Below, piece after piece: positions 15,659 through 19,050 of a stretch of 64,000 bases of DNA. Positions within the stretch are counted from its first letter, which is position 1. Each line of letters opens with the position of its first letter. Origin of the DNA: Escherichia coli (GTDB lineage Bacteria > Pseudomonadota > Gammaproteobacteria > Enterobacterales > Enterobacteriaceae). Position numbers and translations under genes: made by a program. The stretch is taken from assembly GCF_003334305.1 (NCBI RefSeq), contig NZ_QOWS01000010.1; one strand, 5' to 3'. The notes under the pieces are model-generated. The model was not told where the DNA came from. It made no database searches and saw only the letters and a list, made by a program, of their open reading frames with translations.

Positions 15659-16184
15659 AGAGATTACTCTGCCCATAGTCCTCTCCTGTAATTATCAGTC
15701 TGATATTACTTATCCTGGGCAAAAACAGTTTGATTGCGGTAACCCTGTTATCGATAAATTTGTACGCGCATCGCTAAAGAAAAGTGTGCGTAATAGCGAC
15801 TGTGCGGCTAAAGCACTTATTGACAGACAAAGTGGTGAACTGATCGGCATCTGTACTTTTACGGCATATTCGCTGGAAAAACAACGCGTTTCTGGCGTCC
15901 TTCAGGGTTCACAACCTTCAGAAATTGGTGTTGTCAGATTAGTCATGTTGGGGGTAGCACGGAAGTATCAAAAGCGGGGCTTTGGTCAGGACCTACTATG
16001 TGATTTTTTTGAACATGTAAAAATAATTCACCAGGCATTACCAATTAAAGGGGTTTATCTTGATGCTGACCCTGCCGCCATTAATTTTTATGCTCGTCTC
16101 GGCTTTGTTCAGCTTTCAGCGACACCAAATGCTTTTGGTGCTGTACCTATGTTTTTGGCGATTCAGCATATTCTCGCGGCTTAG
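15642..16184 (+). CDS. Putative GNAT-family N-acetyltransferase toxin (TacT/AtaT/ItaT/KacT-like)
   Basis: 180-aa ORF with N-terminal FDCG motif (KQFDCGNPVIDKF), acetyl-CoA motif QKRGFGQ (Q-x-x-G-x-G) and C-terminal NFYARLGF typical of GNAT toxins; SD AAGGA ~10 nt upstream. Confidence 0.85.
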   Translation: MVDKHEEITLPIVLSCNYQSDITYPGQKQFDCGNPVIDKFVRASLKKSVRNSDCAAKALIDRQSGELIGICTFTAYSLEKQRVSGVLQGSQPSEIGVVRLVMLGVARKYQKRGFGQDLLCDFFEHVKIIHQALPIKGVYLDADPAAINFYARLGFVQLSATPNAFGAVPMFLAIQHILAA

Positions 16185-16239
16185 ATTATTATCGCCACCC
16201 GCCAGGGCAAGTTTTGCCTCAGCCGGGGGCTGAGCAGCG

Positions 16240-17175
16240 TTACCACTTTTGTTCAATTGCCCCCGCTTTCAGCAACTCCACATCCTTGCCGTTAATGGTT
16301 GCCGTTGCGGCAACGATTGTGGTCCTTACAGTTGCACAAGATTTTCGCTCAAATTCCGGTTTATAAAGAATAAGAGACGAATTACTGGTAAATGAACCAA
16401 ATAGGTAATCAGTAAAGCTAATATTCAGCCGGTTTAAACCGAAAGGCGCGAAGCCAACCGTTTGGTTAATCTCCTTACCGGATGGGCGACGAATGCTGAA
16501 TGTCACGCGAAGATTGGCCACTTCGCCTAATTTATTGGTGGTGGCGAAGAGGCTATCCATGCAGGAAAAACCTTTATCTAAAAAATTATCTCGCATCCCA
16601 GAACGGGTAACCGTAATCACGGGTAACGTATCGTCAACCGTTTTTCTGTCAATCATGTCTTTTCGACAAGTAGCCAGAAAGTTTTCTGGGCCACCATAAA
16701 TGTGGACACCTTTATCAAGATATTCCTTCGCTTTCTTACAATCTACCTCAACATACTGACCATTGGCGTACATAATGCCCAACCTGGACCATGCTAAATT
16801 CACACCGTGCTGCGCGGCCTGATTAAATAGTGCATACGCTTTGGCATAATCCACCCGCACCTGCTCACCGTCGTAGTAGATACCCCCCAGCGCTAACGGA
16901 GCTTCTCTGTCACCTTGTTTAGCCGCTAACTCGAACCATTTAATCGCTTCCTGAACATCAGGTTTGGTATCATAACGAGGCTGATAATATTCCCAGCCTA
17001 ACAGGCTCTGCGCGTCGATATCTCCCGATTCAGCCATTTTATGCAGTGTATTTATAACATCGGGAGCAGGTTTACCACCGTATATGCTGTCATACAATTC
17101 ATGCGCTTTCTCGCTGGCCACCACGCTTGGTGAAACTATCAGCATTACAGAAAATAATATTCTTTTAGTTAACAT
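16240..17175 (-). CDS. Secreted Sel1-like repeat (SLR/TPR-like) protein with uncharacterised ~150-aa C-terminal domain
   Basis: Start taken at MLTKRILFSVMLIVSPSVVASEKA (signal-peptide-like) within the 331-aa ORF-track frame; Sel1 motifs (AIKWFELAAKQGDREAPLALGGIYYDGEQVRVDYAKAYALFNQAAQHGVNLAWSRLGIMYANGQ); C-terminal ~150 aa has no motif I recognise. Confidence 0.8.
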   Translation of the reverse strand: MLTKRILFSVMLIVSPSVVASEKAHELYDSIYGGKPAPDVINTLHKMAESGDIDAQSLLGWEYYQPRYDTKPDVQEAIKWFELAAKQGDREAPLALGGIYYDGEQVRVDYAKAYALFNQAAQHGVNLAWSRLGIMYANGQYVEVDCKKAKEYLDKGVHIYGGPENFLATCRKDMIDRKTVDDTLPVITVTRSGMRDNFLDKGFSCMDSLFATTNKLGEVANLRVTFSIRRPSGKEINQTVGFAPFGLNRLNISFTDYLFGSFTSNSSLILYKPEFERKSCATVRTTIVAATATINGKDVELLKAGAIEQKW

Positions 17176-17235
17176 GTATACCTTTATGTCCTCACTGTCA
17201 TATATTTCCATAATAATTAACCACCAAACATCCAT

Positions 17236-17576
17236 TTAATGAATAAATACAGTGCCATAAAGGTCCAAGTAATAAGCACACATTTAGCCTGAAACATTAT
17301 CATCCATGTCACCAAATCGTTTATTTAGTGAGATAAAACTAGCATATTCGTAAGATAAAAAATGCACATAGCAATCAAGAAATGATATTATTACTTTTTT
17401 GATGTAAAACTATTTAGTTTTAAAATTCATTTTTTCAACATATAGAGCATTCATTTTATGAATGCAAAAAAACATACCTGACACACAAATTACTCTCCTC
17501 TGTAATATTTTCTCATTAACACTCTGTTTACCCAACATGCGCTCCGCACTACACTATGTGGGCATTTTTTTAAGGG
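17236..17576. other. Very AT-rich intergenic tract (right flank of the islet; likely promoter region for the Sel1 gene and yajR)
   Basis: ~340 bp dominated by A/T runs, with perfect palindrome GCATTCAT-TTT-ATGAATGC at ~17447-17465. Confidence 0.5.
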
Positions 17577-17582
17577 GTGGTA

Positions 17583-18947
17583 ATGAACGATTATAAAATG
17601 ACGCCAGGTGAGAGGCGCGCGACCTGGGGTTTAGGGACCGTATTCTCGTTGCGCATGCTGGGCATGTTTATGGTTCTGCCGGTTCTGACCACGTACGGCA
17701 TGGCTCTGCAAGGTGCCAGCGAAGCATTAATCGGTATTGCCATTGGTATTTATGGTCTGACTCAGGCCGTTTTTCAGATTCCGTTTGGCCTGCTTTCCGA
17801 CCGCATTGGTCGCAAACCATTAATTGTCGGTGGGCTGGCGGTGTTTGCCGCCGGTAGCGTTATCGCTGCGCTTTCCGACTCCATCTGGGGAATTATTCTG
17901 GGCCGGGCGCTACAAGGCTCTGGAGCAATTGCCGCCGCCGTTATGGCGCTGCTTTCCGATCTCACGCGCGAACAAAACCGCACCAAAGCGATGGCGTTTA
18001 TCGGCGTGAGCTTTGGCATTACCTTTGCTATTGCGATGGTGCTTGGCCCGATCATCACTCACAAACTTGGGCTGCACGCGCTGTTCTGGATGATCGCTAT
18101 TCTGGCAACGACCGGCATTGCGTTGACCATTTGGGTTGTGCCCAACAGTAGCACTCACGTACTTAATCGTGAGTCCGGAATGGTGAAAGGCAGTTTCAGT
18201 AAAGTGCTGGCGGAACCGCGGCTGCTGAAACTCAACTTTGGCATTATGTGTCTGCATATTTTGCTGATGTCGACGTTTGTTGCCCTGCCCGGACAACTGG
18301 CTGATGCAGGGTTCCCGGCGGCTGAACACTGGAAGGTCTATCTGGCGACAATGCTAATCGCCTTTGGCTCGGTCGTGCCTTTCATTATCTACGCTGAAGT
18401 TAAGCGCAAAATGAAGCAAGTCTTTGTCTTCTGCGTCGGGTTGATCGTGGTTGCGGAAATTGTGTTGTGGAACGCGCAAACGCAGTTCTGGCAACTGGTG
18501 GTCGGCGTGCAGCTTTTCTTTGTGGCGTTTAATTTGATGGAAGCCCTCCTGCCCTCACTTATCAGTAAAGAGTCGCCAGCAGGTTACAAAGGTACGGCGA
18601 TGGGTGTTTACTCCACCAGCCAGTTTCTTGGCGTGGCGATTGGCGGTTCGCTGGGCGGCTGGATTGACGGCATGTTTGACGGTCAGGGGGTATTTCTCGC
18701 TGGCGCAATGCTGGCCGCAGTGTGGCTGACAGTCGCCAGTACCATGAAAGAACCGCCGTATGTCAGCAGTTTGCGCATTGAAATCCCGGCGAACATTGCC
18801 GCAAACGAGGCGTTAAAAGTGCGTTTGCTAGAAACTGAAGGCATCAAAGAAGTGTTGATTGCAGAAGAAGAACATTCAGCTTATGTGAAAATCGACAGCA
18901 AAGTGACGAATCGCTTTGAGATAGAACAGGCAATTCGTCAGGCATAA
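17583..18947 (+). CDS. yajR: MFS transporter YajR
   Basis: Start at MNDYKMTPGERRATWGLGTVFSLRMLGMFMVLPVL (454 aa); ORF-track frame begins 2 codons earlier at GTG. Confidence 0.95.
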   Translation: MNDYKMTPGERRATWGLGTVFSLRMLGMFMVLPVLTTYGMALQGASEALIGIAIGIYGLTQAVFQIPFGLLSDRIGRKPLIVGGLAVFAAGSVIAALSDSIWGIILGRALQGSGAIAAAVMALLSDLTREQNRTKAMAFIGVSFGITFAIAMVLGPIITHKLGLHALFWMIAILATTGIALTIWVVPNSSTHVLNRESGMVKGSFSKVLAEPRLLKLNFGIMCLHILLMSTFVALPGQLADAGFPAAEHWKVYLATMLIAFGSVVPFIIYAEVKRKMKQVFVFCVGLIVVAEIVLWNAQTQFWQLVVGVQLFFVAFNLMEALLPSLISKESPAGYKGTAMGVYSTSQFLGVAIGGSLGGWIDGMFDGQGVFLAGAMLAAVWLTVASTMKEPPYVSSLRIEIPANIAANEALKVRLLETEGIKEVLIAEEEHSAYVKIDSKVTNRFEIEQAIRQA

Positions 18948-18961
18948 AAAACGCGGCGAAT

Positions 18962-19050
18962 TGCCTGCTGCGCTACGCTTATCAGGCCTACAAAGTTTCT
19001 GAATTACAAACCTTTGTAGGCCGAATCAGGCGTTCATGCCGCATCTGACA
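18962..19050. repeat. REP/BIME element (two inverted REP units)
   Basis: GCCTGCTGCGCTACGCTTATCAGGCCTAC ... GTAGGCCGAATCAGGCGTTCATGCCGCATCTGAC between yajR and yajQ stops. Confidence 0.7.

Follow-up and report, generated by a model that had tools for sequence, protein, structure and literature searches.

The closest described relatives of the element analysed here are stem-loops at bacterial transcript ends. At 143 of 144 Rho-dependent 3' ends in Escherichia coli, the end lies just past a stem-loop of terminator-like energy; such stem-loops have reduced U, no upstream A-tract and a mild excess of C over G downstream, and they protect against PNPase and RNase II (PMC6061677). REPs act as mRNA stabilisers and in part as Rho-dependent attenuators (bioRxiv 10.64898/2026.03.23.713779). 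Regarding convergent genes, a further preprint describes E. coli pairs that end at overlapping sites, with a stem-loop in the nascent RNA required for positioning polymerase collisions (bioRxiv 10.1101/2022.10.23.513370). A study of E. coli HS described ItaT, a GNAT toxin that acetylates Ile-tRNAIle, mentioned its occurrence in BL21(DE3), and also covered the itaRT promoter and its autorepression by the ItaR-ItaT complex (PMC6125619). A search of that study's text by term returned no mention of a terminator, and a literature search with the locus tags of itaT and the adjacent gene yielded that study only. Here we compare with these systems the short spacer between itaT and a convergent Sel1-repeat gene in the window, that is, the whole stretch of 64,000 nucleotides of E. 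coli DNA that was analysed.

The itaRT-Sel1 island

The genes and the spacer between them are located as follows.

15347-15658, + strand: itaR antitoxin gene, DUF1778/TacA family (RefSeq annotation of the identical BL21 locus; PMC6125619)
15642-16184, + strand: itaT GNAT toxin gene, TAG stop at 16182-16184 (ORF list, match to PDB 7byy, PMC6125619)
16185-16239: spacer of 55 bp between the convergent itaT and Sel1 stops (sequence, ORFs, RefSeq, genome survey)
16240-17175, - strand: Sel1/TPR-repeat gene with the RefSeq start, TAA stop at 16240-16242 (ORF list, RefSeq, Pfam PF08238)

Here itaR and itaT are the itaRT toxin-antitoxin module published for E. coli HS/BL21: the toxin is identical to ItaT (PDB 7byy) at 179 of 180 residues (E = 4e-118), an overlapping DUF1778 antitoxin gene precedes it, and the chromosomal place is that found in BL21. 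Together with the Sel1 gene, whose open frame runs on to 17235 beyond the RefSeq start, itaR and itaT make up a 2.3-kb accessory island between cyoE and yajR, with cyoC, cyoD and cyoE (ending at 15162) upstream and the yajR start at 17577. Among 5426 complete E. coli genomes, 1368 (25%) carry the island. Its bearers include BL21(DE3), where the spacer corresponds to NC_012971.2 413420-413474, as well as REL606 and HS; it is absent from O157:H7 and from K-12, in which the published high-resolution 3'-end maps were made. In E. coli, itaRT and the Sel1 gene are always co-inherited (1368-1369 genomes). Three PLSDB "plasmids" of 1.2-4.8 Mb (NZ_OL790696.1, CP061270.1 and CP099174.1; H141-H143) carry this chromosomal locus at 99.9-100% identity and look like chromosomes or chromosome fragments misfiled as plasmids.

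Several observations concern the surroundings of the three genes. Two 19-bp palindromes upstream of itaR, ATACGGCTAATAACCGTAT (15220-15238) and ATACGGTTGATAGCCGTAT (15275-15293), stand on either side of the best promoter match (TTGACA at 15242; TAAATT, with its end at 15270) and are both kept in Pseudocitrobacter (locus L004, about 2568-2650); they are likely the ItaR-ItaT operator sites. Between the divergent Sel1 and yajR genes, the DNA (17236-17576) is very AT-rich, with 26-31% GC, as is typical of horizontally acquired sequence that H-NS may silence. A second Sel1-repeat paralogue of about 480-500 aa lies directly upstream of the 311-aa gene in L015, L017, L018 and L019 (1-1490), L004 (4528-6012) and L023 (42-1478), carriers that belong to cryptic Escherichia clades and Pseudocitrobacter. 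At its place yajR immediately adjoins in the window and in L001, L002, L012, L016, L020, L021 and L026.

The spacer palindrome and its competing folds

Three structures were delimited within the spacer.

16218-16234, both strands: small hairpin CTCAGCC-GGG-GGCTGAG (sequence, folding)
16205-16219: central mini-hairpin GGGCAA-GTT-TTGCCT, -5.4 kcal/mol (folding)
16194-16230: extended imperfect palindrome, arms 16194-16204 and 16220-16230 (folding)

An earlier, sequence-only reading of this DNA had reported the small hairpin, its position and the 55-bp spacer, and all three are exact according to the ORF list and to RefSeq of the identical BL21(DE3) locus. The hairpin has a perfect 7-bp stem (16218-16224 paired with 16228-16234) and a 3-nt GGG loop, with -10.0 kcal/mol on either strand. 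Its delimitation as a 17-nt element did not stand: folding outlines a GC-rich palindrome of 37-47 nt that fills the spacer and is extendable to 16193-16239 on the - strand, and the 17-nt hairpin is predicted not to form on the itaT-sense RNA. In the window allele, the extended palindrome reaches -18.8 (+) and -20.4 (-) kcal/mol, and the whole-spacer fold -19 to -22 kcal/mol across strands. For the isolated 61-nt 3' UTR, the minimum free energy (MFE), the extended fold and the tandem small hairpins have values of -22.3, -20.0 and -12.9 kcal/mol on the - strand, and -20.4, -15.6 and -12.2 kcal/mol on the + strand. Since the 3' arm of the extended fold overlaps the small hairpin, the two structures are mutually exclusive. 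With the natural upstream context, the pair probability of the small hairpin is about 0.8 in the Sel1-sense (-) RNA and about 0-0.04 in the itaT-sense (+) RNA, where the mini-hairpin (0.9-1.0) and a bulged outer stem form instead; these strand-specific folds are thermodynamic predictions, which ribosomes and the order of transcription would shift.

The folds of the window allele have z values of -1.3 for 91 nt (both strands) and of -0.8 to -1.1 for the 47-nt core. The small stem is mildly unusual, since a perfect 7-bp hairpin arises in just 1.8% of the dinucleotide-shuffled 55-mers. Across the window there are 52 such hairpins, as compared to 27 +/- 6 in shuffles, which corresponds to 0.045 per 55 bp. 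An Rfam covariance-model scan of 15000-17800 returned nothing at E <= 1.

The same reading had noted that no T-run accompanies the hairpin, and on neither strand do the 12 nt 3' of the stem contain one. The 8 nt that follow the small stem are CAGCGTTA (+) and GCAAAACT (-), and the tails of the extended hairpin are TGAGCAGC (+) and GATAATAA (-). A TTTT at 16212-16215 lies 5' of the small stem on the + strand, hence an A-run 3' of the stem on the - strand, and CTTTTGTT at 16246-16253 is found 12 nt 3' of the small stem within the Sel1 ORF; as the A-tract and T-tract of a shared hairpin, TTTT thus has the wrong polarity on both strands and CTTTTGTT is 12 nt off. T-tail scores of the spacer hairpins range from 0.05 to 1.95, compared to 4.98 for the cyoE terminator. 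The terminator scan called none in the spacer and did call the cyoE control at 15178-15201. Similarly, d-scores of all spacer hairpin variants are -40 to -59, as against +17.7 for cyoE (+ strand) and +13 to +25 for the terminators behind relatives of ItaT; these scores, from the formula of d'Aubenton-Carafa et al. 1990 combined with modern energy parameters, serve for comparison with the controls only. The GC-rich stem-loop of a canonical terminator is therefore present and the U-tract of about 7-8 nt after the stem is absent. Because this U-tract is missing 3' of the stem in both directions, the palindrome does not qualify as a canonical terminator, be it intrinsic or bidirectional; in line with the earlier remark that the hairpin has no clear U-tract, the scan and the d-scores place no canonical intrinsic terminator on either strand.

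Origin and variation of the spacer

To the left, the island adjoins the terminator of cyoE, and the following features delimit the junctions of the itaRT segment.

15178-15201, bidirectional: cyoE intrinsic terminator AAAAAGGTGC-TACG-GCACCTTTTT (terminator scan, positive control)
15203-15206: left ATTG at the junction, read in the window as TTTTTTATTG/TCTGAG (15197-15212)
16256-16259: right ATTG at the junction, read in the window as GTTCAATTG/CCCCCG (16251-16265)

The ATTG-bounded itaRT segment (15207-16259, 1,053 bp) comprises itaR, itaT, the spacer and the end of the Sel1 gene, namely its last 17 nt (16243-16259) and its stop codon. Homology to the Sel1 genes of itaRT-less Escherichia starts at 16256 (ATTGCCCCC). 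In Escherichia sp. E4930 (L017), which is devoid of itaRT, the exact empty site is found as an uninterrupted TTTTTTATTGCCCCC (L017 2440-2464), and the Sel1 stop is located in the loop of the bidirectional terminator of cyoE, within the sequence ...GCGGGTTTTTTATTGCCCCC... The junction analysis thus explains the missing U-tract: the itaRT segment parts the Sel1 stop from the cyoE terminator. In the window, antisense itaRT sequence of 1 kb stands between the Sel1 gene and a canonical terminator, and the next one for Sel1 read-through on the - strand (15201-15178) lies past the whole itaRT operon. Across Escherichia lineages, including E. albertii (L016) and the E. coli-like L021, three different sequences abut the ATTG/CCCCC point, and the Sel1 protein has three C-termini (...EQKW, ...HPKP and ...KNPPE). 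No direct repeats longer than ATTG were detected at the segment ends, where a local alignment scored no better than those of shuffles. Whether the history was one of insertion or of deletion, sequence comparison across the junction places the palindrome on the itaRT side.

In Pseudocitrobacter (L004), cyoE, itaRT and Sel1 occur at the same site (ItaT 91% and Sel1 59% identical), with a 36-bp spacer of unrelated sequence that contains a REP-like palindrome with an 11-bp stem and no U-tract. In L023-L025, itaRT-less or toxin-less relatives of Pseudocitrobacter, REP or REP-like elements directly follow the Sel1 stop. It should be noted that in L023 and L024 (2428-2732), from a Pseudocitrobacter-like metagenomic lineage, itaR was called with no toxin gene before Sel1; the gap of roughly 300 bp between itaR and Sel1 suggests a deleted or decayed itaT. 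Relatives of ItaT at about 70% protein identity occupy other genomic places. Canonical terminators stand behind those of L005, L006 and L009 and behind the plasmid relative L027, L028 has a comparable hairpin whose T tail is merely weak, and a U-less hairpin precedes the convergent chaA in L008. The sole related context with no hairpin after the ItaT relative is L007, where iclR is convergent. A hairpin at this position is therefore the rule in related contexts, with a U-tract where the downstream neighbour is not tightly convergent.

The possibility that the palindrome travels with itaRT was rejected, as the homology of plasmid-borne and other-genus relatives (65-72% identity) ends with the stop codon, and these have terminators of their own. 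A dispersed repeat was likewise dismissed: sensitive BLAST of the 61-mer identified one place per genome, hence a single copy of the spacer in each of 1369 genomes. REP identity was discarded on the same single-copy result and on the consensus tail ...CTTATCCGGCCTAC, which occurs at 6 window sites and at none in the spacer. Elsewhere in the window, two opposed REP-like sequences (a BIME-type pair, 18978-19029) are located in the 128-bp spacer of the convergent yajR and yajQ genes, which provides an internal comparison for the itaT/Sel1 spacer.

Comparison of 165 bp in the 1369 genomes assigned 1252 of them to an allele at least 99% identical to the window, about 99 to the CUVET19 type and about 18 to the MFDS1019527 type; further alleles comprise three from cryptic Escherichia clades and one rare E. 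coli variant (FDAARGOS_944). All the non-major lineages have T at - strand position 16229 and GGCCGGAGG at 16203-16195, and judged from these outgroups the window allele is probably derived at 16197, 16200 and 16229. These three changes are all in stems, and the MFE of the - strand was kept at -22 kcal/mol through a shifted register. Of the natural variants, G16229A weakens the small hairpin, and A16197T with C16200G strengthens the long one. The stem of the small hairpin is substituted in every lineage except the major allele, which leaves it at -7.3 (-) and -3.8 (+) kcal/mol in about 100 genomes and at -5.7 (-) and -2.2 (+) kcal/mol in about 18. The extended hairpin is kept or better in the non-major alleles, with -27.3 kcal/mol on the - strand in MFDS1019527/L020, and the MFDS, L020 and L018 alleles have fold z values of -3.5 to -5.1 on that strand.

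Pairing and covariation were analysed in a sample of 7 alleles. On the Sel1-sense strand, pairing is retained in 97% of cells for the tandem small hairpins and in 92% for the extended one, as compared to 90% and 77% on the itaT-sense strand; the better values of the former strand arise because C/U transitions leave G.U pairs. Only one-sided G-C/G-U changes were found in these alleles, with 0 pairs showing two-sided (compensatory) changes in either candidate structure, and the shuffle controls of this test were uninformative. G.U-preserving changes favoured the - strand in 4 of 5 events, which is not significant. With so few events and no pair changed on both sides, statistical proof of selection is lacking. 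The spacer is also the most variable part of the region (7/55 differences in the most divergent allele, versus 4-5/55 in flanking coding sequence). Evidence for selection on the palindrome is thus weak. Furthermore, the Sel1 gene has been independently inactivated by IS3 insertion, frameshift, internal stop or truncation (L026 GB089, L002 CUVET19-1704, L012 MFDS1019527 and P0014 Shigella sonnei), so that selection on its 3' UTR may be negligible; itaRT is intact in all three annotated strains with a broken Sel1 gene (GB089, CUVET19-1704 and MFDS1019527).

How the two transcripts may end

As the two stops are only 55 bp apart, both 3' UTRs are obliged to share sequence, and the overlap at the 3' side that the sequence-only reading had proposed is likely. 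Rho-dependent termination, its other suggestion, would be the most plausible route to the transcript ends. We tentatively favour, at a little less than an even chance, a U-less 3'-end stem-loop with Rho-dependent termination downstream. RNA polymerase would read through the palindrome, and Rho would terminate some hundreds of nucleotides downstream, on C-rich antisense RNA that is not translated, with head-on polymerase collisions possibly aiding it; 3'-5' exonucleases would then trim to the stem base, so that the 3' ends of both mRNAs would be defined and protected and the mature 3' UTRs of itaT and Sel1 would have about 35-45 nt in common. The anatomy, the lack of terminator features, the junctions, the range of alleles and the stretches richer in C than in G were observed in the sequences, whereas we infer that Rho acts here, that the stem stops exonucleases and whatever effect there may be on expression. 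Two stretches could load Rho by their composition, the 95th percentile of the C/G background in the window being 1.67.

16679-16821, + strand (itaT read-through): C-rich, G-poor stretch, candidate rut, C/G 2.3-2.9
15889-16018, - strand (Sel1 read-through, antisense to itaT): C-rich, G-poor stretch, candidate rut, C/G 2.1-2.4

The stable stem-loops on both strands and the hairpin in nearly all related contexts count for this 3'-end stem-loop, as do the older-looking alleles, which fold far better than their shuffles, and the pairing retained on the Sel1-sense strand. Just past the palindrome, C/G is 1.3-1.7 on the + strand; on the - strand it stays at about 0.9-1.0 for 200 nt and the strong stretch starts from about 220 nt downstream, which was counted against it. 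The same is true of the fold of the window allele, carried by more than 1,230 genomes and no better than shuffled (z about -1), and of expression, as itaRT and the Sel1 gene are probably weakly transcribed because itaRT represses itself (PMC6125619) and the DNA around the Sel1 promoter has 26-31% GC.

That the palindrome is functionless GC-rich sequence left at the edge of the itaRT segment, drifting neutrally while the 3' ends lie elsewhere or are diffuse, appears rather unlikely. The z value of the dominant allele, the highest substitution density of the region, the lack of compensatory covariation, the substitution of the small stem in every non-major lineage, the repeated decay of Sel1 and the absence of homology past the stop in distant itaRT relatives are all consistent with drift. 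Neutrality accounts less well for the presence of a hairpin here in nearly every related locus, for the z values of -3.5 to -5.1 in the MFDS, L020 and L018 alleles, and for three derived changes that all fell in stems and left the - strand MFE at -22 kcal/mol; besides, a stable 3' stem-loop blocks exonucleases whether selected for or not. If the hairpin instead made polymerases arriving from both sides pause, collision-driven or weak intrinsic bidirectional termination could occur, with head-on and trailing collisions releasing them between the genes without Rho. We consider this improbable: the palindrome does fold on both strands, and in the preprint on convergent E. coli pairs a stem-loop positions the collisions (bioRxiv 10.1101/2022.10.23.513370), but the sites described there have A- and U-tracts, of which the spacer has neither, and the tail of the - strand stem, GAUAAUAAUCU, is AU-rich yet U-poor. 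The collision mode moreover suits highly expressed pairs, whereas itaRT is autorepressed and Sel1 adjoins very AT-rich DNA.

With no terminator either way, the next on the - strand being 1 kb off beyond itaRT, Sel1 read-through across itaT and itaR, or the reverse, might tune the expression of the toxin or of Sel1, and the constant co-inheritance of the two modules in E. coli would agree with such antisense coupling, which the sequence-only reading had raised. It is nonetheless quite improbable, as stretches with more C than G suited to Rho loading occur within 220-640 nt on both read-through RNAs, Sel1 exists without itaRT in other Escherichia lineages (L016, L017 and L021), itaRT stays intact where Sel1 is split by IS3, frameshifted or stopped, and the ItaR-ItaT repressor complex already regulates itaRT (PMC6125619). 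A role at the DNA level, as a recombination or insertion signal of a mobile itaRT cassette, is very unlikely. It would fit the ATTG on both sides of the segment, the exact empty site and the three different sequences at one ATTG/CCCCC point; however, the repeat is just 4 bp with none longer detectable, the island has no recombinase gene, the palindrome is single-copy and is missing beside the itaRT relatives of plasmids and other genera, and Pseudocitrobacter itaRT occupies the same site with an unrelated spacer. Equally doubtful is a model, built on the predicted folds, in which the spacer would be a bistable 3'-UTR element that can adopt either one long hairpin (16194-16230) or two tandem ones (16218-16234 and 16205-16219) and whose fold would differ between the strands, the small hairpin forming only on the Sel1-sense RNA. 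The derived changes at 16197, 16200 and 16229 would favour the small hairpin and thereby tune either Sel1 antisense transcription into itaT or the termination of Sel1 translation. An effect on translation is reported for REPs that lie no more than about 15 nt from a stop codon, in 2015 work by Liang, Rudd and Deutscher. The Sel1-sense stem begins 5 nt past the Sel1 stop codon, and an effect on Sel1 translation termination was for this reason kept as part of the model.

Taken together, the hairpin is real but ordinary, a U-less 3'-end stem-loop at the edge of an inserted toxin-antitoxin cassette; it is ordinary because U-less stem-loops are common in short convergent spacers of E. coli, and 3'-end protection after Rho termination is already well supported. 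When itaRT is cloned or deleted, its 3' flank should be borne in mind, as it supplies the last codons of Sel1, its stop codon and its only 3' stem-loop. The related loci also form a natural series for the 3' end of one gene, with Sel1 ending inside the cyoE terminator, before a REP or before this palindrome, which allows termination regimes to be compared.

In bioRxiv 10.1101/2022.10.23.513370, which cites SEnd-seq work, overlapping bidirectional terminators share with this locus the use of one hairpin by two convergent genes; they differ from it in their A-tract/U-tract pair, which the spacer does not have, and the true local example of that class is the cyoE terminator (15178-15201), used by Sel1 in E4930. 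REP/BIME elements resemble the palindrome as U-less structures in short convergent spacers and are found at exactly the corresponding place after the Sel1 stop in L023-L025 and in the yajR/yajQ spacer, but the spacer has no REP consensus and is present in one copy per genome. The palindrome is also like the U-less Rho-dependent 3' stem-loops (Dar & Sorek 2018, PMC6061677): a stable stem-loop right after the stop, of terminator-like energy, with low U and no A-tract. It departs from that class in that one palindrome would serve two convergent transcripts and in that, on the - strand, the clear excess of C over G sets in only about 220 nt downstream.
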